Virus genome (UHGV): UHGV-1350822
Length of the DNA stretch: 38,999 bases
DNA from: a virus
Strand: one strand, 5' to 3'
Both the position numbers and the translations under genes were made by a program. Positions 4,035 to 17,231 of the stretch are shown piece by piece. The notes beneath the pieces are model-generated. The model was given only the letters and a program-made list of their open reading frames with translations. It ran no database searches and was not told the origin of the DNA. The first letter of the stretch is position 1; each line of letters opens with the position of its first letter.

Positions 4035-4122
4035 CGTAACCTACTGGATAAATACTCAATAGTACCATTTCGGTATGCAATCACATCATGGTTGCATCAT
4101 ATCATTCGTCTGGAGCAATGAA

Positions 4123-6321
4123 ATGTCAGATATCACCGCAAATGTTGTGGTAAGCATGCCTTCGCAACTCTTCACTATGGCGCGTTCTTTTAAAGCAGTT
4201 GCCAATGGTAAAATTTATATCGGTAAAATTGACGCTGACCCCGTAAATTCAGAAAACCAGATTCAGGTTTATATAGAGAACGAAGACGGCTCTCACGTTC
4301 CTGTTTCGCAACCAATAATCATTAACGCTGCCGGATATCCGGTATATAACGGACAGATTGCCAAGTTCGTAACTGTGCAAGGCCATTCCATGGCTGTATA
4401 TGATGCGTATGGTTCGCAGCAGTTCTATTTTCCCAATGTGCTGAAGTATGATCCCGATCAGTTTAGCCAGCGAATGGAGAATGTTCCTGACATCCATACC
4501 TTAATGAGCGAGCCTGCTGGGAATCACACATTAAATGTAATTGGATACGTACCAGGAACCAACTTTGGCGGCGGGCAGTTTTACTGGGATGCCAGCATGC
4601 CTAAATCTCAGCACAACGGTATCACCATATTTAGCCCCACAGTTCCGTGGGATGGTTCGTATGCTGAGCTCGCTGCTTTCCTTGCGGGAACTGGTGAGAG
4701 TGATGGTGGTGGCTCTGGTTGCTGGATCCGTTCGAATTGTGTGCTCGATGGCATACATACAGTTTGGGCTGGACATGATATTAACGGAGTGCATGATTCA
4801 ACGGCATCGGTTAACGCTTGTATATCAAAATTTGGTGGTGTTAGAGCAATACGTTTTAGCGCCGGTGAGATAAAGTTTAATTACCAAATCAGCCAGCAAT
4901 ATCATGACTCTGCAGGTGTTATACGTAAAACAGCAATTGTAATTAATGGTAAAAATAATTTATTTGTTTACGCAGATAATGATGTAAATATAAATACAGA
5001 TGGAAATGGTGAGGCTGAGCGTGTTTGCTTTGGTTTATTCAACTGCAAAAACTTTAAATTTAATGGTATAAAGTTAAACCAGTCATGCACAAATTTTTCA
5101 ACTGGACCTTCAGATACCACGTTTACCCCTCAAGAGAATTGGTTTGGTTTCGCACTTGAGGGGAGTAGTGGATCTATTAATGATATTGACGTATTGGCTG
5201 CAAGAATCTTTGTAATGGCAGATGCTGATGGTGACGGTGCTATACCAAATGAGGATATAACTCTTAGCAATGTAAGGACTGATTTGGTAACAAATTATAC
5301 ATTTTTCACTAAAAATCTTAATGGAATTGCTAAGATGATTGACTGCCAAACGTACAGAACAGGCAGAAAATGGCATACTTTTGGTGAAGATTTTGCGTGC
5401 TCAGCAAGAACAAAATATTTAATTGCAGAAAGAAATCACTTTATAAGCCCTATAAGTATTCAGTCTAGGATTACTCCTTGGGGGGTGACTGGTGGTGCAG
5501 TTATATCGAATAACATCAAAACAGGACAAGGAATATTCGTTGAGATAGGAGGTGAATCTAACGGTGTTGCAGCGCAGAATGTTGTTATTGATAGCAATAT
5601 AAGCATTGGGGATCAGAACGAGGATGGCACATTTTCATCTCATATTCTAATTATCTGGAATGGTAGTAATGACTACTCAACATCATTCAATGGAATTAAA
5701 ATAACAAAAAATACATTTAAAGGCGGTGGTTATGCCATAAATGATTATGCTGAAACTCAGATGTCTGCATATTGTTATGGACTTGTGATTGAAAACAACC
5801 AGTTTGATAGAACTGATGCCGTAAAAGTAACAATGCCCACATGGAGAAAATCTATATACCGAGGGAATAAGTCATATTTTGTTCATGGCAATACAGGTTG
5901 TGAAATTGGTGGTTATGCTCCAATTATTTCTGACAACGACTTTGATTCTACATATCTAGTATCAACTTCGGGTGTGCGTATCGATGAACCAGTTATTGAA
6001 AATAATGAGTTTAGTAACACTTTAAACTCACCAGTAAATCAACTTATTGACTGGCCTAGTTTTGCTGGAATGATATATAGAGGAAACAGATACACGTTTT
6101 CAATTAAGAAATTTAGAGATAACGCAGATATGGTTTCCTGTGGTTGGCGTTTTGCCGATGTGTCTGCTGGAATAGACACTGCTCCTACTACAACATACCC
6201 TGGGAAAGTGCTGATAAATATAGGCGATATGATTCACAATGCAGGTACTCCTGCATCAGGAACAAACTGGGCATGGTATGGTCTTGGAAACAATACATAT
6301 GGTAATCTTAATATAGCGTAG
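4123..6321 (+). CDS. Tailspike: P22-type N-terminal head-binding domain fused to a distinct beta-helix receptor-binding/depolymerase domain
   Basis: [11 protein letters not shown]...[11 protein letters not shown]...[13 protein letters not shown]...LKYDPDQ matches the P22 gp9 N-terminus; remainder is Asn/Gly-rich repeats typical of a right-handed beta-helix; GGAG RBS before ATG 4123 (ORF track start 4075 is probably too early). Confidence 0.85.
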
Positions 6322-6331
6322 CGGAAATCAA

Positions 6332-6349
6332 GCGGGGCCATCGCCCCGC
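6332..6349. terminator. Bidirectional stem-loop terminator between convergent tailspike and acyltransferase genes
   Basis: GCGGGGC-CATC-GCCCCGC 7-bp GC stem with 4-nt loop, T-rich flanks on both strands. Confidence 0.6.
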
Positions 6350-6353
6350 AATG

Positions 6354-7508
6354 TTACTTTTTAATGAATCTCCACTCAAAATTCTTAAAACAGATACAGG
6401 AAATAACGCTACACAGAGATGCAATAAAGGCTATCAAAATTGTGTAATTCACAGTAGACATGCTCGATAGGTTATAGAAATTATTTATTGTTCTCATTAC
6501 TATAGCCATGATAGGCAAATGCAGCAAATAAAGACTATAACTTGCCTCACCTAAATAAACTAATGATTTTATTTTAAATATTTTTGGTTTAGTTATAAGT
6601 ACCATTATAAATAGTAATGAAATGCATGCAAATCTGATTCGTCCATAGCTGTCTGCGGAAGAGCAGAAGATAACAAAAATAGCTATGAAAGAAATGAATG
6701 AGAATATCCAATATTTATCATCAATGTTAACATAAGATTTATTGAATATATATGCACCTAAGGCGCCAACTATAAAATATGGCCACAAAACAAATTCTGT
6801 CATAAAGTCTCTTGCCGCAAGTAACATTACTGCGGAAATGGCAAACATACCATATCTCTTGCTTGCGATGGCAATCGATAATAGAGGGAAAATTAAATAA
6901 AACCTCCATTCATACGGTAGAGTCCATATCACCGCATTTAATCCTGATGCGTTAAAAGAGCCAATGAAGATTTCTGTGCCCAAAAATCCAAACCCAAAAA
7001 AATTTAGGAAGCTTGAAAAATCAACAAAGTTAAGCCTTGCTGAACTGCCGGATAATATAATAGCTAAAATTGCCACCAAAAGCGCAGTAAGCATATATAG
7101 AGGAACGAGTCTTTTTATCCGAGCAACATAAAATTTATTCCAGTCAAATGTATTATTTCCTTTTATTAATTTATCAAAGAACAAAAATCCTGTAATGCAA
7201 AAGAAAATCTGTACACCGAAGCTACCCATATTCCCTGTGATGGAGTATTTTGTGAAGTCTATAAATATGGGCTGAACTCCATTGGTAATAATTGTATGAG
7301 CGCCGTGATTAATAAGAACGCTGAACGCAGCTATCCCACGCAATCCGTCTATAAAGAAATACCTGTTACTTGCAAAGTTGATGTGAGAAAAATAGTTATA
7401 TCGTGTCAATAGTGTAATACATAACACAACGGCTAAAAGAGACAAAAAATATAAATAAAGACTTTGCGCCTCAAAGATCATAATGCACACCATGAGATAA
7501 AATTTCAA
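6354..7508 (-). CDS. oac: Acyltransferase-3 family integral membrane protein, likely O-antigen acetyltransferase (lysogenic conversion)
   Basis: About 10 predicted TM helices; N-terminal R...H motif (RGIAAFSVLINH) and FFCITGFLFF motif typical of acyltransferase 3; very AT-rich; sits between tailspike and int as oac does in Sf6. ORF-track start is TTG at 7508; ATG at 7493 is more likely. Confidence 0.8.
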   Translation of the reverse strand: MKFYLMVCIMIFEAQSLYLYFLSLLAVVLCITLLTRYNYFSHINFASNRYFFIDGLRGIAAFSVLINHGAHTIITNGVQPIFIDFTKYSITGNMGSFGVQIFFCITGFLFFDKLIKGNNTFDWNKFYVARIKRLVPLYMLTALLVAILAIILSGSSARLNFVDFSSFLNFFGFGFLGTEIFIGSFNASGLNAVIWTLPYEWRFYLIFPLLSIAIASKRYGMFAISAVMLLAARDFMTEFVLWPYFIVGALGAYIFNKSYVNIDDKYWIFSFISFIAIFVIFCSSADSYGRIRFACISLLFIMVLITKPKIFKIKSLVYLGEASYSLYLLHLPIMAIVMRTINNFYNLSSMSTVNYTILIAFIASLCSVISCICFKNFEWRFIKK

Positions 7509-7726: not shown

Positions 7727-8884
7727 TCACTCCACCTTTTCATCAATCCAGTCAGCCCACCACTGCATCATTTCTCTGCGCTTATCTAGATACTGAGCAT
7801 GGTTGTAAATCCCGCGCACAGATCCGCCGTTGGCATGTGCAAGTTGCACTTCAATAGCGTCAGCAGGCCATTCGTGCTCGTTCATAATCGTGCTGAATTC
7901 ATGCCTGAATCCGTGACCGCTTTCCAGACCCTCATAGCCGATTTGTTTGATCACAAGCAATACCGCGTTCTCGCAGATTGGCTTTTTCTTATCGTTGCGC
8001 CCGGCAAAAACAAACTCTGATACTGGTTTAGTGATTGAGCTTAGCGTAGTGAGAAGTTCAACCACCTGGTCTGACATCGGGACAACATGAATTTTGCGTC
8101 CCTTCATCACACTGGCGTCGATGGTGATAATCCTGTTTTCAAAATCGACGTTCTTCCATTGCATGGAACGAAGCTCTTTCGTTCTTAGGGCTGTGTAGCG
8201 TAAAACTTTGGTCGCAATGAGCGATACGATACTTCCTGAAAATGTTGCAAGTGCTTTGTTGAATGCCGGGATCTGGTCGGCAGGTAAAAACGGGAAGTTC
8301 TTCTTGCGGTATCCCTTCATGGCGTCAGCAAGGTCAGGTGCCGGGTTATATTTAGCCCTACCAGTGACAATAGCGTAACGAAAAACCTCGCCGCATCTTC
8401 TGCGGGCTTTGTTGGCTCGCTCCATTGCACCGCGATCTTCAAATCTGCGGATTACTTCCAGCAGTTGCATCGGCTCAATATCCTGAATCTCAAGACCGCC
8501 GATGATGGGTAAAATGTCGTCATCAAACATTTTGGCAAGTTCAGTTGCATAGCCTACTGACCAGACTTGCTTCTTGTGCTCGTACCATTCCTTGTAAATC
8601 GCACTAAATGAATTGTTGCTAGACGAAGACTTTTTCGCCTTTACCGGATCGATGCCAACCGAGATGTCTTTCCTCGCAGTCCATGCCTTATCCCTTGCTT
8701 CCTGCAAAGTCATAAGCGGATATTTTCCGACAGTCAGGATTTTCTCCTTACCGTCAATCTTGTAGCGAAGCTGCCATACCTTTTTCCCTGATACAGGGAC
8801 ATAAAGGTACAGGCCATTACCATCGAGTAGGCGGTATGGTTTTTCTTTCGGCTTTGCTGCTTCAATCTGCTTAACGGTGAGCAT
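7727..8884 (-). CDS. int: Tyrosine integrase, P4/IntS-type (DUF4102 arm-binding N-domain plus catalytic domain)
   Basis: MLTVKQIEAAKPKEKPYRLLDGNGLYLYV N-domain; catalytic residues in HGFRHEF...LAH...Y; ORF track extends to GTG 8920 but ATG 8884 matches the usual IntS-type N-terminus. Confidence 0.9.
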   Translation of the reverse strand: MLTVKQIEAAKPKEKPYRLLDGNGLYLYVPVSGKKVWQLRYKIDGKEKILTVGKYPLMTLQEARDKAWTARKDISVGIDPVKAKKSSSSNNSFSAIYKEWYEHKKQVWSVGYATELAKMFDDDILPIIGGLEIQDIEPMQLLEVIRRFEDRGAMERANKARRRCGEVFRYAIVTGRAKYNPAPDLADAMKGYRKKNFPFLPADQIPAFNKALATFSGSIVSLIATKVLRYTALRTKELRSMQWKNVDFENRIITIDASVMKGRKIHVVPMSDQVVELLTTLSSITKPVSEFVFAGRNDKKKPICENAVLLVIKQIGYEGLESGHGFRHEFSTIMNEHEWPADAIEVQLAHANGGSVRGIYNHAQYLDKRREMMQWWADWIDEKVE

Positions 8885-9045
8885 GGGTAAAAATCCGGTG
8901 GGTAAAATTATTTTATCCACTTTTTACCCGTCATGGAGTGCGGCTGTCAACGATCTGACGCGAACCATGACGAACCGTGAATATACGTAAGGCTTGATAT
9001 TCAGGGGATTTTGCGGACTGGTACGGATGGGAGCGAACTGATAAA

Positions 9046-9084
9046 TGGTGTCCCCTGCAGACATCTACTTGACGAGGCAGGGGA
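9046..9084 (-). other. Candidate attP core: 15 nt identical to the 3' end of tRNA-Arg (argW) including CCA, inside an 8-bp inverted repeat
   Basis: 9046-9060 TGGTGTCCCCTGCAG is the reverse complement of CTGCAGGGGACACCA (argW 3' end as I recall it); inverted repeat TCCCCTGC(9051-58)/GCAGGGGA(9077-84); about 161 nt upstream of int ATG. Confidence 0.5.
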
Positions 9085-9133
9085 TTGATTTGAATGGTGT
9101 TTTTTAGATGTGAGAAATATTTTACCCGCTATT

Positions 9134-9334
9134 TTACCCATTGGCGCGGCTTAAGAGCTTATTTTTGAATTCACAATGGTCACGATATAACCATCTTGCT
9201 CGCCCGTGGATAACTTTGGCTTTTGGCAGGTCGCCGGACTTAATCCGGTCGTAGATGAAGGTTTTACCGAAGCCAGTATCAGCCATGATGAATTTCAAAT
9301 CAACCAGTGAATCAGGTTGTAGTTCGTGTTGCAT
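9134..9334 (-). CDS. xis: Excisionase / AlpA-family small DNA-binding protein (TorI-like)
   Basis: 66-aa protein with winged-helix AlpA/Xis character; immediately upstream of int and attP; GGAG RBS. Confidence 0.75.
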   Translation of the reverse strand: MQHELQPDSLVDLKFIMADTGFGKTFIYDRIKSGDLPKAKVIHGRARWLYRDHCEFKNKLLSRANG

Positions 9335-9365
9335 GAGTGCTATCTCCGAATAGGGAATCGAACCT

Positions 9366-9389
9366 GCAAATCAGGCAATAAAAAACCGC
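9366..9389 (-). terminator. Rho-independent terminator (leftward transcript) upstream of xis
   Basis: Stem CCGCC/GGCGG with loop on the minus strand, followed by a TTTTTTATT run. Confidence 0.6.
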
Positions 9390-9442
9390 CATCAGGCGGC
9401 TTGGTGTTCTTTCAGTTCTTCAATTCGAATGTTGGTTACGTC

Positions 9443-9754
9443 TTATTCGATGCGCACTCCTGGTATTTCTCCTTTTGATATTGCTAAGTCATAAATTTGC
9501 GCGGCACTATATCCATCCCGCATCCATGAATCTAAGGCGCGAACAGCCTCGCTACGCTTTTTATCTTCTCTCTCATTTTTGATATCAACGAGGACATCAA
9601 CGCAATTAAGGCAAATGTGGATTTTGTCCTTACATTCGATCATGGCGGCTTTACCATGATTTCCGCCACACAGTGAGCATAAATCTTCAGGGTCTGTCTG
9701 GTATTTCTGTAACGTTAGATGGTTGAATGTTGAACAGGCCATAATCATCTCCAT
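9443..9754 (-). CDS. Hypothetical protein with Cys-x2-C...C-x2-C zinc-ribbon-like motif
   Basis: 103-aa ORF in the leftward operon; CSLCGG...CLNC motif. Confidence 0.5.
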   Translation of the reverse strand: MEMIMACSTFNHLTLQKYQTDPEDLCSLCGGNHGKAAMIECKDKIHICLNCVDVLVDIKNEREDKKRSEAVRALDSWMRDGYSAAQIYDLAISKGEIPGVRIE

Positions 9755-9813
9755 AAAACAAAACTCGCCGTAGCGAGTTCAGATAAAAGAAATCCCCGCG
9801 AGTGCGAGGATTG

Positions 9814-10098
9814 TTATTCATTGCTGATATTCACCTTTATCGCGAACACCTTTACCGGTTTATCACCGAAGTGCGGATGTGTGATTGTTTTGATTTCATA
9901 TCCACCATACGGAACATCAATTCTGCGACTGGAATCGTCGCGCTTCGGATATCCCTTTGTGATAATCAGGCGGTCATACTTCCGGAACATAATTCGCTTT
10001 TTCCAGTAATCATTACACAGGCGATACTCTTCCGTTTTCTCGTATGACTTCATCTGGTCGAAATATTCACCTTTAACGGCAAGTTGCAGGTTAGCCAC
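9814..10098 (-). CDS. Hypothetical early-left (Ea-region) protein
   Basis: AGGAGG RBS then GTG at 10098; the ORF-track ATG at 10227 lies inside the upstream gene, so the shorter form is more likely. Confidence 0.5.
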   Translation of the reverse strand: MANLQLAVKGEYFDQMKSYEKTEEYRLCNDYWKKRIMFRKYDRLIITKGYPKRDDSSRRIDVPYGGYEIKTITHPHFGDKPVKVFAIKVNISNE

Positions 10099-10798
10099 GG
10101 TTAACCTCCTGCTTAGGTGCTGCTGGCATTTCACGCCAGTGCGTAACTGAGTGCGGATCCGGATATTCGGTGCCATCATCCCAGCGATTACCATTCCACA
10201 TTGCAGACCACATCTCACCGTCTTCATACATGACCATTACCGGAATTAACTTATCCGGCATTCGCTCACTACAGCTTATCCAACCATCCGGAGTTACCGG
10301 AGAGTTGCCATTCACAAGGTCAGCTCGAACATATAGCGTGTCATCATGGTGCTGATTGTGGCTGCACCACGTTAATTCGCTTAACTCGCCATCTTCTGGC
10401 CATACTCCAGCCGTTTGCAGCCAGATATGGGCTGGCGCATCTTGGCAAGGTGTATTAACTGGCAACTTGCAAGTTTGGCTTACAGGTTCGGCTTCCAGTT
10501 CTGCTATGCGCTTTTTTGCTGTTTCCAGCTCGCCCAGCAGCGCCAAGACGGTAGCCGGATTGGCTGCGGCGATGAATTCAGCGTTGGCCTGCTGTTCCAT
10601 TTGGAAATCTTCATCGAAACCGCTTTCTGGATGCGCTCCTTCAATTCTGCAAATAGGAATATATCCAGCAACTTCACGATGAATTAGTGCATCATCACCA
10701 TCAAATCGGCCCTTTCCATATTCGAGCGACCACACACCACACGTTGCTTTCTCTGCCTTTTCACGCAGTGCCTGATAGTCAATTTTCATTCTCGCCAT
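10091..10798 (-). CDS. Ead/Ea22-like protein with C-terminal DUF551-like domain
   Basis: 235-aa ORF; N-terminal coiled-coil and Trp-rich C-terminal region typical of Ea22/DUF551 prophage proteins (recalled family, not searched). Confidence 0.55.
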   Translation of the reverse strand: MARMKIDYQALREKAEKATCGVWSLEYGKGRFDGDDALIHREVAGYIPICRIEGAHPESGFDEDFQMEQQANAEFIAAANPATVLALLGELETAKKRIAELEAEPVSQTCKLPVNTPCQDAPAHIWLQTAGVWPEDGELSELTWCSHNQHHDDTLYVRADLVNGNSPVTPDGWISCSERMPDKLIPVMVMYEDGEMWSAMWNGNRWDDGTEYPDPHSVTHWREMPAAPKQEVNRG

Positions 10799-11430
10799 TC
10801 TTCACAGTTGTAATCACTACAGCCTTCAAAATCATATGGGCTGTACTGCCAGGTTATTTTTCCGCAATGCGGACAATTCCAACGCACCTTCCCGCTTCGC
10901 GACTTCTTTCTTCTGTTCTGCTCTTTCAACCAGTCAGGCATGACCAAACCTGCGCCCTGAACCATTGTTCTGCGATTAAAGTTATTGATATTGAACGTCC
11001 GGCGCTTTGCTGCATCAGCAATGGAAAATGGCAACCAAACTATTCCTGGTTCGTTTTTGTTGGCGACGCTAAAGATGGTCGCTTTACTGAAGTCATCTGT
11101 TGGCAATCCACCGTGTTGAAGCCAGTAAACATCGTTGCCGTTCCAGCTACCTTTTTTGTAGGCCACATACGCAGTGCAATCTGACTCAATCAGGCTTTCT
11201 GTAGGGATGTACTGGCAATCAACGTGCCACACAGCCATTGCATCCACGCTATCAGCGCAAACAGGCTGATCGATATCTCGACCACAATTCCAGGCTTTTT
11301 GGGCTTCTTCCTGCGTGTAAACATGTGCTCGATCGATATCAGAACTGTAACCATTACCGTTATGGCAATGGAATGAGGCGTTATTACCCACAGTTTCACG
11401 CAAGCACATCATGTAAAAACGGTTACTCAC
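10786..11430 (-). CDS. Hypothetical protein with C-terminal zinc ribbon
   Basis: 214-aa ORF; CPHCGK...C...C motif; overlapping starts and stops with neighbours. Confidence 0.5.
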   Translation of the reverse strand: MSNRFYMMCLRETVGNNASFHCHNGNGYSSDIDRAHVYTQEEAQKAWNCGRDIDQPVCADSVDAMAVWHVDCQYIPTESLIESDCTAYVAYKKGSWNGNDVYWLQHGGLPTDDFSKATIFSVANKNEPGIVWLPFSIADAAKRRTFNINNFNRRTMVQGAGLVMPDWLKEQNRRKKSRSGKVRWNCPHCGKITWQYSPYDFEGCSDYNCEEWRE

Positions 11431-11816
11431 TGGTTGCCTCCTTTGCGAAGCTCTGCAGCGAAATATACAGCTGCGGAAACAATAGCTGCATGTCGGTATT
11501 CACCATCAGAAAATAAAGAATCTCCCTTAAGTGCATTGACGATACTCTGATGATTTTTTGCCAGCATCTCCACGCCCTGCGCCCGGACTTCATCCAGGAA
11601 AGTGTCGGTGGCTGGAGTCCCTTCAACCTTCAGCCCTATAGGGGCCAGGTAATCCTTCAGCTTTGCATTCTCCGCCGCCAGCGCCGCGCACTTGGCCTCC
11701 GCTTCAGCAAATTTACGCACCAGATATTCAGCGTTTGTTTCGTTAACCTTTAAATCACTTGGGATGCATTTACCTTTAAGAAATCCATCCATCTCAATTA
11801 GTGACATTTGTTTCAT
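11427..11816 (-). CDS. Hypothetical protein
   Basis: 129-aa ORF, ATGA overlap with the downstream gene. Confidence 0.5.
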
Positions 11817-11977
11817 TTCTTCCCACTCCGCAACATCGCATTCAGATATTTGTTTTGATTCACTGATGGAAAAGAATTTCTTTTAAGCAATTCCTCTCTC
11901 GATGGCATTGGATTTACGCGTTGGCGAATAATCATTTCTGCCGGAAGAATGCCGGGATTGTATGCAAGTCCTCTCAT
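11813..11977 (-). CDS. Small hypothetical protein (about 54 aa), translationally coupled on both sides
   Basis: ATG at 11977 overlaps the upstream TGA and its own TGA overlaps the downstream ATG (ATGA at both ends); absent from the ORF track because it is under 60 aa. Confidence 0.35.
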
Positions 11978-12255
11978 GATTTACTCTCCACGAACTGGTC
12001 AATAGCCATGCTGAGTGACACACCTAAAGTCTCGATATGCTGCTTAATATCCTGTAGCGTCTGCGCCTGAGATAACAGGATTTCACGGTTGCATAACTCT
12101 TTAACCAGATGCTCAAACTTGCTGTAATAACCGATACGACTTAGTGTTTCTTTCCCTGCATTCTCGCCTTCTTTGATAATTCCTCTTTCGCTAAGAATCA
12201 GATCGTGTTTGGTTCCGGTGATAACGTATTTGCCGAGGTCGATGTTTAGCTTCAT
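11974..12255 (-). CDS. Hypothetical protein
   Basis: 93-aa ORF in the operon. Confidence 0.5.
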
Positions 12256-12271
12256 TGTTAATTATTCCATG

Positions 12272-12586
12272 TTAATTTATTCGTATGCCTGCTCTTTCTT
12301 CATCGAGTTTTTTTAGCTTGTATCGCATAGCCCTTACTGAATAAATTGAGCGGCAGGTTGCAATTGCTATTTCTTCTGCGGAGAACTTACCGAAAAGTGA
12401 TACTTCGGCTCTTGTCCATCGTCTTCCACGAAGTCGGCTAACAATGTCAGCTCCAATCCTTGTTGCTTTCGCCATTACTGCTTTTTCAGTCCTTTCCAGT
12501 TTTTCAGCGATAACTTCAACTGGCATTGTCGCCGCCACTTCGCGCAAGAAATCGACTTCCCATTTCTCCCATGGAGTCTTTTTCAT
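12272..12586 (-). CDS. Hypothetical protein
   Basis: 104-aa ORF. Confidence 0.5.
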   Translation of the reverse strand: MKKTPWEKWEVDFLREVAATMPVEVIAEKLERTEKAVMAKATRIGADIVSRLRGRRWTRAEVSLFGKFSAEEIAIATCRSIYSVRAMRYKLKKLDEERAGIRIN

Positions 12587-12597
12587 AGGCGATACCG

Positions 12598-13086
12598 TTA
12601 TTTGATAAGAAGTGAAGGTTTCCCAACCTTGAGTTGAGCGCCTGGGATATTTATTCCTGCTTTTAGTTGGTGCTTGATTGCCAACTTGTCGGCTTTAATT
12701 GTCGTTTCAAACTCAACGTATTCAGGAGGAAGGGCGCTTGAGTCGATGATTTCTACAGTTTCTGACGGTTTGCGGATTGTTACCTGGTGAATACCTGCTC
12801 TAATCTTTTTCTTGCCAACCATTTCAAGCGATGAGGCTATATATGCCATAATGCTATCAATCTTATTTTGAATTACTGCTGCTCGTTCATTCAGTGACTT
12901 TGCCTCGTCCTTGAGGCGTTCAGCATAACCAGATTCATTTTTAATAATGGCAAGAAGTTGCTCTATTTTATCGGTAAACTCTCCTTCCATGCCTTCTATT
13001 GTGTCAGCAATCATCTCTGGTTCTAAATCTGAATCCATCAATTTTGCGTATTCATTGGCAATTTCATATAGTTTGCTCACTGGCAA
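12598..13086 (-). CDS. Recombination-module accessory protein (possibly Gp157-family)
   Basis: 162-aa acidic coiled-coil protein immediately downstream of RecT; family name is a recollection, not verified. Confidence 0.4.
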   Translation of the reverse strand: MPVSKLYEIANEYAKLMDSDLEPEMIADTIEGMEGEFTDKIEQLLAIIKNESGYAERLKDEAKSLNERAAVIQNKIDSIMAYIASSLEMVGKKKIRAGIHQVTIRKPSETVEIIDSSALPPEYVEFETTIKADKLAIKHQLKAGINIPGAQLKVGKPSLLIK

Positions 13087-13975
13087 CCTCCAGTTTCGCT
13101 TTGCATTCTGCGTAAATGGCTTGTACGTTCTGCTGCAATTTCATTCCAGATGTCAGGCGATATGCTTCTGCAAAATATCGCTTCAAATCATCCATGTTTT
13201 CTGCCTGAGCCATTTCATCACAAAGAAGTTGTGCTTTTTCCATAATTTCCTGCTGGCGTTTCCGTTCATCTTCGCGGATATCTTCCTCTGATTTGTGCGG
13301 CATAACTGGTTCAGTCCATACACCTTCTTCTTCGTTTAGTACGTGAATAGCACTATCAAGACGTGATGCCTTAGGCCAATACTTGCTTGCACGCTTTACG
13401 ACCGTCTTTCGCGCCATCTCATTCCAGTGATTTACCCATGGTCCTTTATCGCTGAATGCCGCCTTGCTTGTTTTCCTTACAGCCTCAATTTCAGCCAGAC
13501 TCATCTCTTCCGTTAGATAATCACCTGCTGGCGTCTTAACTGTGCAGTAAACGCCAACGATATCACCACGATCACCGAAGGCGTTGTATTTATGGGTTGG
13601 TGCTTTATCAAGCCCGTTTGACTCATAGGTATCGTTAGCATGAACAAGTTTTGCCTGACCCCATGAGATAACACCAGACTCCATTGCAATATGGAGCAAT
13701 CCCATATAGCTGATATCAAGGCAAACCATGCCGTCGCGCGGAACTAGATAAGCCAGTTTGCTGGCCGGGTTTAAGGTGATGCCGATCGCCGCAACGTTGA
13801 TGATAGCGTTCTGTGCGCTGGTCGGATTTGCCAGTGCCGTTTTAGCCAGGTAATCGTTTTTCTGGAAATACTGAATTGCAAACTGGCTTTCCTTAGCCCA
13901 TGTCACCGTCTGTTCAGTCAATGCTCCGCAGAATAACTGCTCCTGCTGTTTAACGAATTCAACGATATTGCTCAT
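13064..13975 (-). CDS. recT: RecT-family single-strand annealing protein
   Basis: Motif KGPWVNHWNEMARKTVVKRASKYWP resembles RecT GPWVTHWEEMAKKTAIRRLFKYLP. Confidence 0.85.
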   Translation of the reverse strand: MSNIVEFVKQQEQLFCGALTEQTVTWAKESQFAIQYFQKNDYLAKTALANPTSAQNAIINVAAIGITLNPASKLAYLVPRDGMVCLDISYMGLLHIAMESGVISWGQAKLVHANDTYESNGLDKAPTHKYNAFGDRGDIVGVYCTVKTPAGDYLTEEMSLAEIEAVRKTSKAAFSDKGPWVNHWNEMARKTVVKRASKYWPKASRLDSAIHVLNEEEGVWTEPVMPHKSEEDIREDERKRQQEIMEKAQLLCDEMAQAENMDDLKRYFAEAYRLTSGMKLQQNVQAIYAECKAKLEVASEQTI

Positions 13976-14283
13976 GCTGCTTCTCCAAAAATGTGTCTGC
14001 GTTTGAATATTGCGAAGGCATATTCAGCCTTAACTCTTTCGGTTATTGCATCCCAGAACCATTCAGCGGCTTTTTCCTGATAGTTACAGTCATCATCTTC
14101 CAGCCAGTCGATAGCGTCCTTAGTGTGTTCATCTGGTTTATATGAGCGAAGCATTTCGCTTATTGGGTCGCAACGTTTGCAGAGGCGATCAACTTCACTG
14201 TTGATTCGTTCGTAATCTTCATCAGTAAAACTTGCGATTATTTGCGATATTTCACGCTTATCATTCAGAGTCAGAATCATCAT
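13972..14283 (-). CDS. Hypothetical protein
   Basis: 103-aa acidic ORF coupled to recT. Confidence 0.5.
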   Translation of the reverse strand: MMILTLNDKREISQIIASFTDEDYERINSEVDRLCKRCDPISEMLRSYKPDEHTKDAIDWLEDDDCNYQEKAAEWFWDAITERVKAEYAFAIFKRRHIFGEAA

Positions 14284-14364
14284 CTTTCTCCTGTTCTTTG
14301 TGCTGATTGAGCATTTTGTTCATCTGACGAATGAATTCTTCGTCTGACCAGTTATCTGTAAAAC

Positions 14365-14535
14365 TCATGGACGGCCTTGTTGTTTCAAAATATCCCAAAG
14401 CTTTTCGAGCAAACTTTTCATTCTTGGTTGTTTAAAGTCTGCTCCGGTTAAAATATTTTTTCGTGAATGCTGTACCGATAAAATCGGGTTGAAAGGGCGA
14501 ACCGATGCCGCCCCTGCAATAGCGAACTGTTGCAT
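14365..14535 (-). CDS. cIII: cIII-like small regulator (putative FtsH inhibitor)
   Basis: 56 aa from ATG 14535 with AAGGAG RBS; MQQFAIAGA... and SLLEKLWDILKQ resemble lambda CIII MQYAIAGW...SLLERITRKL; the ORF-track upstream extension is unlikely. Confidence 0.5.
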   Translation of the reverse strand: MQQFAIAGAASVRPFNPILSVQHSRKNILTGADFKQPRMKSLLEKLWDILKQQGRP

Positions 14536-14600
14536 AGGATGCTCCTTCTGTTTGATTGCATAACGAAAACGCCTCTCGTGAAGCGTTATTGGTATGCATA

Positions 14601-14625
14601 TAAAAAGGCCCTCACATTGGAGGGC
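14601..14625 (-). terminator. Rho-independent terminator in the leftward operon (tL-like)
   Basis: Stem GCCCTC/GAGGGC with 6-nt loop, followed on the minus strand by CTTTTTAT. Confidence 0.6.
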
Positions 14626-14720
14626 AAAGAAGATTTCCAATAATCAGAACAAGTCGGCTCCTGTTTAGTTACGAGCGACATTGCTCCGTGTATTCACTCG
14701 TTGGAATGAATACACAGTGC

Positions 14721-14909
14721 TTATTCGTCATGCATTTCAGGTAATTCTTCGTATTCGACGCCCCATACGAGTTTACACCAACTAACTCGCTCATATCTTT
14801 TACAGAAATCAGACCACATAACTTGTGTTCCATCATGGTTTGTTATTACTTCTGTAATATCACCAACACTAACAAAACTGGTATTAGAAGCAGTTATTTT
14901 TACTTTCAT
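14721..14909 (-). CDS. Hypothetical protein
   Basis: 62-aa ORF. Confidence 0.4.
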   Translation of the reverse strand: MKVKITASNTSFVSVGDITEVITNHDGTQVMWSDFCKRYERVSWCKLVWGVEYEELPEMHDE

Positions 14910-15205
14910 TATTCATCACCTATAGCTTTTTTGATAGCTTCGAGAGCCTTATTAACAGCTCCATACCATTCTGGATATGTTGTCGTTGTTCTATTTTTGG
15001 CTTGCTTAAGTAATAACTGAAGTGCTTCGAGAAGGTCAGGTGCTGCCGCTATTAGATTGGCATCTTCAATGCATTGAACTTCCTCACAGATTGCAATATA
15101 CGAACGCCAGCCTGCGCCATTTTCAAGTGAGTCTGCCTGGATGATTTTAATCTCATCGCCATCCATCATTATTTCCCACTTACCTTTAGTACCTTTGAAT
15201 TCCAT
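14909..15205 (-). CDS. Hypothetical protein
   Basis: GAGGTG RBS before ATG 15205 (98 aa); the ORF track extends to 15271. Confidence 0.5.
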   Translation of the reverse strand: MEFKGTKGKWEIMMDGDEIKIIQADSLENGAGWRSYIAICEEVQCIEDANLIAAAPDLLEALQLLLKQAKNRTTTTYPEWYGAVNKALEAIKKAIGDE

Positions 15206-15260
15206 ATTCACCTCTATGCTTGCTGCCAAAACAATGAACCATCCGGAAATTCCAGATAGT

Positions 15261-15488
15261 TCATAATTCACTCTTCAATACTTCCAACTTACTAATCGCC
15301 GATAGATATCCGCGCTGATAGGGCATCATCATTCCTTCGAGCTTGCCACTTCTTAACTCCTCCCTGAGCAATTGTATTGCTTGATCAATAACCTCTGCCT
15401 TAGCGTCCTTTATGGCTTGCTTGCGGGGCTTTGCTTTCTGCTTTGGCAGATTTCTCAAGCATGATGGAATGTATGTCTGATTCACCAC
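15261..15488 (-). CDS. Hypothetical small basic protein immediately downstream of the N-like gene
   Basis: 75-aa ORF; GTG start directly after the N stop. Confidence 0.4.
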   Translation of the reverse strand: MVNQTYIPSCLRNLPKQKAKPRKQAIKDAKAEVIDQAIQLLREELRSGKLEGMMMPYQRGYLSAISKLEVLKSEL

Positions 15489-15761
15489 TTACCTCGCTGT
15501 CAGTTGTTTTGATTTCCGGTAGCCTGCCGCGTAAATGGCTACGTTTGGCAGGCAAATACTTCCACTGCATTCATCTGCCTTCTTGCAGCGAAGGCTTCCG
15601 AGTGATGCTGCTTTATCTGCTCTGACGCAACCAGAGAGCTTTAGCGCAATTTTTCGTGCCAGTCGCTGCTCTTGCATTGCCTGTTCACGTTGAGCCTGTC
15701 TGCGTGCTCTGCGGCGATTTCTGGCGTTATCGTCAGCCAGATATGTAATGACTACTGTCAT
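15489..15761 (-). CDS. N: N-like transcription antiterminator (P22 gp24 type, arginine-rich motif)
   Basis: N-terminal ARM NARNRRRARRQAQREQ; C-terminus VAIYAAGYRKSKQLTAR resembles P22 gp24 ...ALYAAGHRKSKQITAR; strong GGAGGT RBS. Confidence 0.85.
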   Translation of the reverse strand: MTVVITYLADDNARNRRRARRQAQREQAMQEQRLARKIALKLSGCVRADKAASLGSLRCKKADECSGSICLPNVAIYAAGYRKSKQLTAR

Positions 15762-15868
15762 GTTGACCTCCGATGATTGACTTTGGCGGTGACGCGCCGG
15801 GTGCTTATCTTCCGGTTGCCGTCGTGCAGCTGCACTTCACGCCACCCCAAAGCCAACTACTCTTTGGT

Positions 15869-15909
15869 TCCCGCATTTCGGCGGGACAATCCCATCAATG
15901 TTAAAGAGC
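15869..15909 (-). promoter_or_regulatory. nutL site (boxA GCTCTTTAA and boxB hairpin)
   Basis: boxB hairpin at 15869-15886 is the exact reverse complement of the nutR hairpin at 17565-17582; boxA-like GCTCTTTAA at 15901-15909 on the minus strand. Confidence 0.7.
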
Positions 15910-15948
15910 CTGCCAATCTGTTCCGTTTGGCTTCCAGCGTCCTGCTGA

Positions 15949-16037
15949 TGGCTAAAGAATACTGTAGGTATTTTATTGTGTAAATACCCAAGGTATTTAT
16001 TTTTGATGAAATAATGATAAACAAATGAATACAAAGG
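15949..16037 (-). promoter_or_regulatory. OL/PL region: three dyad operators (AATAC-N5-GTATT) with a candidate PL promoter
   Basis: Operator-like dyads at 15951-15966, 15977-15993 and 16021-16037; minus-strand -35 TTTACA and -10 TATTCT with 17-bp spacing. Confidence 0.6.
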
Positions 16038-16128
16038 ATATTTATTTTTTCGCTGTCTGCTTGTTCAGTGATTTTTATGCGGGATATGTGAAGTGGATCC
16101 CGATAGCTATTGCTGTCGGGATTATGGG

Positions 16129-16497
16129 TTAGTCAGCGAAGGTTAAGACGAGAATTACCTTAATGATGTCTGCTACAACAGACACGGCCATAGATAAACC
16201 AAAGACGATCCAAGCCACAGTGATGTCTTCACTACCATCGTATAGAGTTCCGTAATCACTGGTGTAAGGCGTAAATGTCGCGCCTTGATACAATAGGTAT
16301 AAGCTTGATCCATAGAGGATAAATGCAGATATCCCTTGTATTGCTATGATCACAAGAATCATGAAACGAGCTGATCTATGCGCCCAAGCCTGGCTTATTT
16401 TTTCTGATAGAGATTTCGCAATAAAAGCATGCGCTAAGCCGTAAATTGTCGAGATTGCCAACATCCCAAAAAAGCTTGCTATAGCGGTTCCAACCAT
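16129..16497 (-). CDS. Small integral membrane protein (about 4 TM) co-transcribed downstream of cI; candidate superinfection exclusion or abortive-infection determinant
   Basis: Hydrophobic segments; occupies the rexAB position between cI and PL; AAGGGG RBS before ATG 16497 (ORF track gives TTG at 16518). Confidence 0.55.
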   Translation of the reverse strand: MVGTAIASFFGMLAISTIYGLAHAFIAKSLSEKISQAWAHRSARFMILVIIAIQGISAFILYGSSLYLLYQGATFTPYTSDYGTLYDGSEDITVAWIVFGLSMAVSVVADIIKVILVLTFAD

Positions 16498-16514
16498 AAT
16501 CGCCCCTTGCGTGA

Positions 16515-17231
16515 TCAAACCAGCCTTAGTTTTGTCTCAATTGCAACGCCTATAATCTTGCAGTTTCCATTGATTGGCACGAGAGGCCATGCAGGATTAA
16601 GTCCCTTGAGGTATTTATTTCCGCCGTCGATTATCAGCTTCTTGAATGTTGCTTCGTTAGAGTCAGAAAGTTTTGCTATGACCAAGCTGCCGTTGATCGC
16701 CTCCCTTCCGGTATCGAAAAGAACGAATGTTCCCTCTGGAATGCTTAACCCAACCGGTGCCGTCATTGAATCACCTTCCACTTTAAGCCAAAACGCATTA
16801 CCTTGAATATGCGCGTCAGACTCAAGCCAAACATCTATGTCTTTAATGGTGTATGGTTCGCATGCTTCACACCACGAGCCAGCCTGGATACTGCTTAACA
16901 CCGGATACCTCTTTCCTGCTCTGTATTCCCCTGCATACCTTACGTTGGCATCGCTCTTAAGGCTTTCTGCCTGTTCTGCAACCTTGGCAGCAATTGACTG
17001 GCTAAAATCAGCAATTGAGACTTGCAACAATCGTGCAAAACCAGATGCAACCTCAACGTTTAGCGCGTTTCTGCCATTAAGATAATGCCCTACCGCTCCT
17101 TGGGTGATACCCAGTTCATCAGCGATTGAGTATTGGGTTATTCCCAATTCTTTCTTTTTTGACTCATACAAAGCCTTAAGCCGCTTAGCGTCTTCGAGCT
17201 GTTCTGTCGTCAGTGATTTTTTATTTTCCAT
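16515..17231 (-). CDS. cI: CI-type prophage repressor (HTH_XRE N-domain plus S24 LexA-like autopeptidase C-domain)
   Basis: HTH QYSIADELGITQGAVGHYLNG; Ala-Gly cleavage site (SIQAGSW); Ser/Lys dyad (GDSM...FKKL). Confidence 0.9.
   Translation of the reverse strand: MENKKSLTTEQLEDAKRLKALYESKKKELGITQYSIADELGITQGAVGHYLNGRNALNVEVASGFARLLQVSIADFSQSIAAKVAEQAESLKSDANVRYAGEYRAGKRYPVLSSIQAGSWCEACEPYTIKDIDVWLESDAHIQGNAFWLKVEGDSMTAPVGLSIPEGTFVLFDTGREAINGSLVIAKLSDSNEATFKKLIIDGGNKYLKGLNPAWPLVPINGNCKIIGVAIETKLRLV

Follow-up and report, generated by a model that had tools for sequence, protein, structure and literature searches.

The closest described counterparts of the locus analyzed here are the exo-xis region of phage λ, the ea genes of phage P22, and the recombination (Rec) module of phage HK140. 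The λ exo-xis genes are early and non-essential and are described as modulating the lysis–lysogeny decision. P22 Abc1 and Arf aid recombination by a mechanism that is unknown, and the HK140-type Rec module consists of SAP-4 plus MuGam (PMC12315714). Here, we analyze the early-left region of the virus genome UHGV-1350822, available as one stretch of 38,999 nucleotides (nt) that we refer to as the window. The analysis centers on a cluster of small minus-strand genes at 9443-12586, on the neighboring recombination module, and on two short open reading frames (ORFs) of 54 and 35 amino acids (aa).

The window is an essentially complete genome of a P22-like (Lederbergvirus-type) coliphage, with IME10, Sf6, and HK620 as the best whole-window matches. 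In order of increasing coordinates, which runs counter to transcription, the minus strand carries int, xis, eight small genes, a RecT-centered module, a CIII-like gene, and N (Table 1). Very probably, positions 9443-14535 of this strand make up the distal two thirds of an N-antiterminated pL operon in an Sf6/HK620-like, P22-type temperate coliphage, occupied by ordinary lambdoid accessory genes. The initial annotation had proposed seven to eight tightly coupled small genes between xis and RecT, in a variable early-left accessory region of a lambdoid phage. Both points hold: eight minus-strand ORFs with compact junctions fill 9443-12586, in a region that is P22/Sf6-like and mosaic. Each of these ORFs matches a PHROG family (E-values from 3e-118 to 2.8e-20), and for that reason we take all eight to be real genes and not chance frames, and the region to be a typical mosaic ea/exo-xis region of an Sf6/HK620-like phage. 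It contains no new kind of element. None of 50,697 phage records and 5,426 E. coli genomes covers at least 80% of 9300-14500; the best reach 72-77%, in three to seven pieces. When relatives are compared gene by gene, the Rec module is 95-100% identical in four of them; the ea genes come and go.

All genes of the operon would lie on a single long transcript, in which start/stop overlaps of 4-23 nt probably let ribosomes re-initiate on the next gene. The transcript would have two parts. (i) The Rec module, predicted to encode CIII, the 35-aa ORF product, a 103-aa protein, RecT, a Gp157/MuGam-like protein, and an Abc1-like helix-turn-helix protein. (ii) An accessory string, predicted to encode a DUF5405 protein, a DUF2737 protein, an EaE-like protein, a 214-aa zinc-ribbon protein, an Ead/Ea22-DUF551 protein, an ASCH-like protein, and a ClpX-type zinc-finger protein, and ending at xis and int. 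By analogy with λ exo-xis and the P22 ea genes, the accessory string would be non-essential.

Two considerations weigh against this picture of the operon. First, coupling and expression are deduced for this phage from the arrangement of its genes. Second, two tandem terminator-like hairpins sit between the ASCH-like gene and the zinc-protein gene, and would isolate this last gene unless N antitermination reads through them, as the model assumes. Another hairpin of this kind follows the zinc-protein gene, at a place equivalent to that of an annotated rho-independent terminator in HK140. Since hairpins bracket the gene and no promoter-like site was found in front of it, expression of the zinc protein would depend on N-mediated read-through. 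Scanning 8900-17000 against Rfam at E ≤ 1 returned no matches.

The locus shares with the P22 ea and λ exo-xis regions its position, strand, and operon, a mosaic turnover of genes, and small, tightly packed genes. The families in common are Ead/Ea22, DUF551 (as in the C-terminus of P22 EaA), EaE-like, and orf56/DUF2737. It differs from λ exo-xis in having no homologues of orf60a, orf61, orf63, orf73, and ea8.5, and from both P22 and λ in having the predicted ClpX-type zinc-finger protein (Sf6 gene 19) and the 214-aa zinc-ribbon protein, which those two phages lack. With respect to the HK140-type Rec module, no difference of substance was found: the 35-aa ORF, the 103-aa gene, RecT, the Gp157 gene, and the 104-aa gene encoding the putative helix-turn-helix protein are 95-100% identical and in the same order, and cIII is identical; PMC12315714 makes no mention of the small ORF. 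The same five genes are also 95-100% identical in phages vB_EcoP-611R6 (611R6) and Louie and in a prophage of E. coli A41, and the 102/103-aa protein and RecT are 98-99% conserved in four relatives.

The smaller of the two short ORFs, 108 nt long with its stop codon, belongs to the Rec module, where it is promoter-proximal to RecT. Its 5′ end forms an ATGA overlap with the TGA stop of cIII, and at its 3′ end it runs 20-23 nt into the next gene, which is read in a different frame. The initial annotation was right about its existence and its 5′ overlap; its boundary is at 14261 and not 14262, its 3′ end carries no ATGA, and it lies outside 9443-12586 and not between xis and RecT. The product contains the peptide MSFTDNWSDEEFIR and matches phrog_17766 (E = 5.1e-16) and, over residues 1-20, phrog_2123 (E = 3.5e-10). 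A tblastn search found the ORF in 92 phage records; it is annotated in 611R6 and Louie and unannotated in HK140 and A41. The CIII-like gene is coupled to it directly, with no kil in between; 44 of 80 relatives with the same module have a kil-type sequence at that junction.

The N-terminal cassette of this product, MSFTDNWSDEEFIRQM, is common to HK97 gp42.1 and Sf6 gp30. Along the same lines, the first 48 nt of the ORF (14321-14368) are identical to those of HK97 gp42.1 (83 aa), Sf6 gp30 (52 aa), and an ORF of SEN22, and the sequences are unrelated thereafter. The genes that flank the identical 48 nt in HK97, Sf6, and SEN22 are unrelated on both sides, with kil or cIII upstream. As aligned, the 35-aa ORF begins with a short cassette located exactly at the mosaic joint where the kil/cIII genes meet the recombination module. 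It would be one local form of a family of short ORFs whose start codon overlaps the stop of kil or cIII and whose end falls within the first gene of the recombination module.

We analyzed the conservation of the 35-aa ORF in 80 loci fetched through the neighboring 103-aa gene, a way of sampling that does not depend on the cassette itself. Of these loci, 79 have the frame open; the 80th has no alignment anchor and was not scored. Three kinds of sequence precede the ORF in this sample (44, 30, and 5 loci), two of them matching the kil and cIII contexts of annotated phages, and the ATGA overlap at the start is found in the flanks of all three. Similarly, a DNA pattern scan found 186 loci with the cassette, and the frame is open in each of them. 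Overall, 7 variable sites are synonymous and 16 non-synonymous. Codons 2-16 have 6 synonymous and 8 non-synonymous sites, a synonymous excess over the expected fraction of 0.16 (p = 0.014); codons 17-28 have 1 and 8, respectively, with an expected synonymous fraction of 0.13, and look neutral. Beyond codon 16, other phages carry an altogether different tail, so that versions of 35, 52, 56, 60, and 83 aa exist, and a profile search found the N-terminus on many tails of 30-126 aa, accidental fusions included. The first 16 codons form a near-invariant cassette, the only part with any sign of constraint at the protein level, and even this constraint appears weak on the substitution counts.

Most likely, the 35-aa ORF gives an Arf-like acidic micro-protein that aids the recombination module, as its position and the SDEEFI motif suggest, and the functional part of this micro-protein is probably its N-terminal 16 residues. 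The ORF resembles HK97 gp42.1, Sf6 gp30, and P22 Arf in its slot, which follows kil or cIII directly and heads the recombination module, and in its start codon, which overlaps the stop of the preceding gene; with gp42.1 and gp30 it also shares residues 1-16 without a difference. It differs in its tail, which is unrelated to that of gp42.1 and gp30 after residue 16, in its length (35 aa versus 47-83 aa), and in what follows, namely the 103-aa gene and RecT instead of Erf. An (F/W)SDEEFI motif is common to the 35-aa product and P22 Arf. Its Ser codon is AGT in P22 arf and TCA here, so that, if the two are related, SDEEFI has been conserved at the peptide level. BLASTP aligned the two proteins over 21 residues with E = 0.004, and one source gives a protein with the same N-terminus the name 'accessory recombination function protein'. 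Several observations count against an Arf-like function. The product matches neither of the Arf hidden Markov models (HMMs), phrog_2445 in the PHROG scan or PF17585 in Pfam at E ≤ 10. The kil/cIII-adjacent slot, the ATGA coupling, and SDEEFI all fit Arf, yet the 103-aa gene separates the ORF from recT. The substitution pattern outside codons 2-16 is near neutral, and the near-identical nucleotides of the cassette in different phages could reflect recent exchange and not selection.

Alternatively, the 35-aa ORF may encode no functional protein, being a by-product of the mosaic joint or a bridging frame that carries ribosomes from the kil/cIII stop to where the next gene begins. We regard this as a serious possibility, if on the whole a doubtful one. 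The neutral-looking codons 17-28, the complete exchange of the tail elsewhere, and a tolerance of sporadic fusions and frameshifts are all consistent with it, as are the 48 nt of identical DNA amid unrelated flanks, which a recombination joint would give, and the lack of a call for the ORF by RefSeq and its annotation pipeline PGAP in A41 or in the annotation of HK140. However, the frame is kept open in both samples, with ATGA coupling behind three different upstream sequences, codons 2-16 show their excess of synonymous sites, and the SDEEFI core is shared with P22 Arf through different codons. Moreover, the downstream gene has a strong AGGAG of its own and should therefore need no bridging frame. 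The RNA has no unusual structure either: folding around the 48 nt gave a z score of 0.34, and a structured RNA element, for which Rfam likewise held no match, was dropped as an explanation for the cassette. A separate and improbable reading is that the 16-codon cassette encodes a portable peptide connecting the regulatory gene on its upstream side, whatever that gene is, with any recombination module that follows.

The initial annotation also pointed out that lambdoid phages keep host-takeover and anti-defense genes in this region. Such a role, drawn from position only, is not supported as stated, and we consider it rather unlikely that the cluster is a host-takeover or anti-defense island in which several of the eight small proteins would block immunity or processes of the host. 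The position does match that where P22 and λ keep Abc1/Abc2, Ral, Kil, and the exo-xis genes, and gene turnover between close relatives is very high. The adjacent Gp157 protein (126.3 bits against the Gp157 threshold of 28.6; 16.4 bits for Mu Gam, PF07352, which is under the threshold of 28.3) is classed as a MuGam-type anti-RecBCD candidate (PMC12315714). The 104-aa protein shares phrog_323 with P22 Abc1, the reported trigger of a P4-borne abortive-infection locus (preprint 10.1101/2023.04.06.535777). Abc1 matches this family with E = 1.3e-23, and the two proteins occupy overlapping profile positions (145-190). Their direct alignment is not significant (p = 0.13), which leaves the profile match as the link between them.

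Against an anti-defense island, no protein of 9443-12586 matches a family with a demonstrated anti-defense or takeover function, and no such name was returned by Pfam, PHROG, NCBIfam, or PADLOC, none of which is a dedicated anti-defense profile library; a PADLOC scan of ten proteins gave no matches at all. Six peptides of the cluster were not found in 39 supplementary files of a preprint that screened 200 accessory genes. The characterized λ neighbors Ea22, Orf63, and Orf61 are described as affecting the lysis–lysogeny decision and not defense. Finally, DUF2737 genes also occur in virulent siphophages among Nin-like genes, with no defense context.

The initial annotation listed two zinc-ribbon proteins in the cluster. 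Two Cys4 proteins are indeed present, but the xis-proximal one, the product of 9443-9742, appears to carry a ClpX-type (treble-clef-like) zinc-finger motif and not a classical ribbon, with profile scores below threshold. This protein is 103 aa long from the first ATG and 99 aa from the likely ATG at 9742. It matches phrog_3680 with E = 3e-68, with residues 5-103 on profile positions 1-99. The family comprises 38 clusters, whose members come from the Enterobacteriaceae wherever a source names the organism; 52 phage records contain the protein, which equals a hypothetical protein of 933W-type Stx phages. Prophage homologues in Enterobacter and Klebsiella (48-56% identity) occupy the same slot, one or two genes upstream of xis and int. 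A literature search found nothing relevant on free-standing ClpX-type zinc fingers.

The protein resembles the N-terminal zinc-binding domain of ClpX (PF06689; PDB 1OVX, 2DS5-8) in its CX2CX18CX2C spacing, in the residues around both CxxC pairs, and in the helix after the second pair. It differs from ClpX in being a free-standing protein of 99 aa with no AAA+ module, in scoring under the family threshold, and in its unreliably predicted fold. It could in principle be a mimic of the ClpX N-domain, drawing adaptors or substrates away from ClpX as a decoy and, for example, stabilizing a phage O-type replication protein against ClpXP; we find this improbable. E. coli ClpX has exactly this cysteine spacing, and the four residues concerned here (C22, C25, C44, and C47) do not vary among 22 family members and align to the cysteines of ClpX. 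As in the ClpX domain, the second CxxC marks the beginning of a helix. In Pfam, zf-C4_ClpX ranks first for 20/22 members, all top five matches in a PDB profile search are ClpX, hhalign gives a probability of 93%, the only NCBIfam match is a weak one to ClpX, and the phage carries λ-type O and P genes. Yet every HMM score falls short of its curated threshold (in Pfam, 15.7-15.8 bits and E = 0.014 against a threshold of 27; the best of the 22 members reaches E = 1.3e-3), and the AlphaFold2 (AF2) model is unreliable around the zinc motif, with a predicted local distance difference test (pLDDT) score of 33-44 over residues 1-42. Short Cys4 knuckles readily arise by convergence, no literature on such a decoy was found, and the conserved slot beside xis and int suggests other roles equally well.

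The 54-aa ORF lies at 11813-11977 with ATGA overlaps on both sides, exactly as the initial annotation described it. Its product is a full-length member of DUF2737 (107.4 bits against PF10930, with a gathering threshold of 25 and E = 3.3e-31; residues 1-53 on model positions 1-53/53) and of phrog_1117 (E = 1.3e-36). P22 orf56 is 75% identical to it, and the HK140 annotation equates its own 54-aa homologue with HK97 gp38. A tblastn search found the ORF in 706 phage records, virulent Jersey-like and Kagunavirus siphophages among them, and an exhaustive HMMER scan of 1.84 billion representatives yielded 62 clusters of the protein. The frame is intact in 85/85 loci, where 49 distinct DNA sequences encode only 11 protein sequences. 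Variable sites are distributed 8/4/28 over the three codon positions, and the ratio of non-synonymous to synonymous variation (pN/pS) comes to 0.16 within the group of close relatives and to 0.26 in the comparison with P22; two control frames give about 1.3. An alignment of 22 family members with 40-74% identity has a conserved core in which R33, S35, and F36 are invariant. On this evolutionary record, the 54-aa ORF is a genuine protein-coding gene for a small basic protein under purifying selection. That it is a chance open frame, for which its small size and the absence of functional literature are the only support, is next to impossible given the Pfam match, the spread to virulent phages, the intact frames, the variation dominated by third positions, and homologues recognizable down to about 40% identity, an evolutionary record by which this idea is already refuted.

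The initial annotation regarded both small ORFs as probably translated; that they are protein-coding is borne out for the 54-aa ORF and only weakly for the 35-aa ORF, whose substitutions are near neutral. Neither is novel or overlooked: both belong to catalogued families and are annotated as coding sequences in relatives, the 54-aa ORF in 611R6, Louie, HK140, and E. coli A41 (RefSeq), in the last two as 'DUF2737 family protein'. Their absence from the ORF track is probably a length cut-off artifact: both are shorter than the 60 aa at which ORF listings usually start, and relatives in GenBank have them annotated.

P22 orf56 and HK97 gp38 likewise lie just upstream of an EaE-like gene; the upstream neighbor here is the DUF5405 gene and not abc2. 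Among the 80 closest IMG/VR loci, the 5′ neighbor of the DUF2737 gene is abc2 and not DUF5405, and the ATGA overlaps on both sides are kept. An EaE-like gene is found downstream in 79/80 loci and a P22 EaE-like gene in the 80th. To judge from these arrangements, the 54-aa ORF and the EaE-like gene travel together, and the ORF is ATGA-coupled to whichever gene is upstream. In virulent Salmonella and E. coli siphophages, DUF2737 genes are located between the lysis and terminase genes, among NinZ-/NinH-like mini-genes with 4-nt overlaps. Since it is also found in virulent phages, DUF2737 is not tied to temperate early-left operons. A literature search returned no functional work on DUF2737, only an incidental mention in one paper.

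Table 1. Features of the early-left region of UHGV-1350822, in window coordinates.
Feature	Coordinates	Strand	Family matches and remarks
int	7727-8920	-	
xis	9134-9334	-	
Terminator-like hairpin with T-run, between zinc-protein gene and xis	9402-9383	-	Consensus scan
Xis-proximal Cys4 zinc protein (Sf6 gene 19)	9443-9754 (likely 9443-9742)	-	phrog_3680
Two tandem intrinsic-terminator-like hairpins, each with T-run	9812-9791 and 9780-9761	-	Consensus scan, pattern match only
Junction 5′ of the last (zinc-protein) gene		-	59-71-nt gap with two terminator-like hairpins
94-aa ASCH-like protein	9814-10098	-	phrog_625 (E = 2.5e-48, residues 1-93); GTG start at 10098 after AGGAGG
Junction	10091-10098	-	8-nt overlap
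235-aa protein with Ead/Ea22-like N-terminal and DUF551 C-terminal domains	10091-10798	-	PF13935 and PF04448
Junction	10786-10798	-	13-nt overlap
214-aa conserved protein with C-terminal Cys4 zinc ribbon	10786-11430	-	phrog_2457 (E = 3e-118); GTG start
Junction	11427-11430	-	GTGA
129-aa EaE-like protein	11427-11816	-	phrog_614 (E = 1.4e-42); related to HK97 gp37
Junction	11813-11816	-	ATGA
54-aa DUF2737 protein (P22 orf56, HK97 gp38)	11813-11977	-	PF10930, phrog_1117
Junction	11974-11977	-	ATGA
93-aa DUF5405 protein (Sf6 gene 24)	11974-12255	-	PF17399, phrog_154
Junction	12256-12271	-	16-nt gap
104-aa putative helix-turn-helix protein	12272-12586	-	phrog_323 (E = 2.8e-20)
Siphovirus Gp157 family protein	12598-13086	-	PF05565 (E = 1.5e-36); phrog_253
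RecT-family single-strand annealing protein	13064-13975	-	phrog_148 (E = 2.3e-92); RefSeq 'recombinase RecT'
102/103-aa protein, ATGA-coupled to recT	13972-14283	-	phrog_3486 (E = 3.7e-59)
35-aa ORF	14261-14368	-	phrog_17766, phrog_2123; slot of P22 Arf
56-aa CIII-like protein; TGA overlaps ATG of the 35-aa ORF	14365-14535	-	phrog_550 (E = 1e-22)
N	15489-15761	-	

The remaining accessory genes are similarly assigned to known families. As the initial annotation suggested, an Ea22/DUF551-like protein is present: the 235-aa product passes both Pfam HMMs (PF13935, E = 3.9e-21, 76.5 bits against a threshold of 27; PF04448, E = 1.2e-17, 64.9 bits against 22), and P22 EaA is 39% identical to its C-terminus. 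The 214-aa protein has 133 homologues across the Gammaproteobacteria, from E. coli to Yersinia and Acinetobacter. In its C-terminal CPxC...C...C motif, C186, C189, and C204 never vary and C209 is kept in 90% or more of the sequences, and its C-terminus weakly resembles the eL43 zinc ribbon; the AF2 model (pLDDT 92.4) matched no solved fold. P22 EaE is 28% identical to the 129-aa EaE-like protein (E = 2e-7). The DUF5405 protein scores 25.4 bits against PF17399 (gathering threshold 21.6) and E = 2.8e-31 against phrog_154, which is labelled 'replication initiation protein'; its equivalence to Sf6 gene 24 is named in an annotation note of HK140, and a literature search found no paper on DUF5405.

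The ASCH-like protein owes its name solely to a RefSeq homologue of the same length (94 aa, 89% identical) called 'ASCH domain-containing protein'; the ASCH domain (PF04266) was not matched in Pfam even at E ≤ 10, nor in NCBIfam. For this gene, a 137-aa ORF with an ATG start (9814-10227) was rejected in favor of the 94-aa ORF with a GTG start on the basis of the PHROG alignment, the length of the RefSeq homologue, and the AGGAGG. The longer ORF overlaps the upstream gene by 137 nt, and automatic longest-ORF calling would mis-annotate the gene. PDB sequence searches with the ASCH-like, 104-aa, and 93-aa proteins returned nothing.

Elsewhere in the window, positions 5001-7000 have a G+C content of 35-37%, compared to about 45-50% in the rest. 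This stretch spans the distal part of a 748-aa ORF (4075-6321) and most of a minus-strand 384-aa ORF (6354-7508) adjoining int, and is probably a horizontally acquired host-range or surface-modification module.

As it was posed, the cluster matters little, being a textbook lambdoid accessory region in which both small ORFs fall into catalogued families. What it still offers is a set of conserved phage proteins of unassigned function that are cheaply testable in recombineering, lysogeny-decision, and defense-panel assays. The set comprises the 54-aa DUF2737 protein, which appears to be kept by purifying selection in over 700 genomes of temperate and virulent phages; the 214-aa protein, with a confident but orphan predicted fold, found across the Gammaproteobacteria; the ClpX-like zinc-finger protein, always beside xis and int, Shiga-toxin phages included; and the Arf-position micro-ORF in the RecT module.

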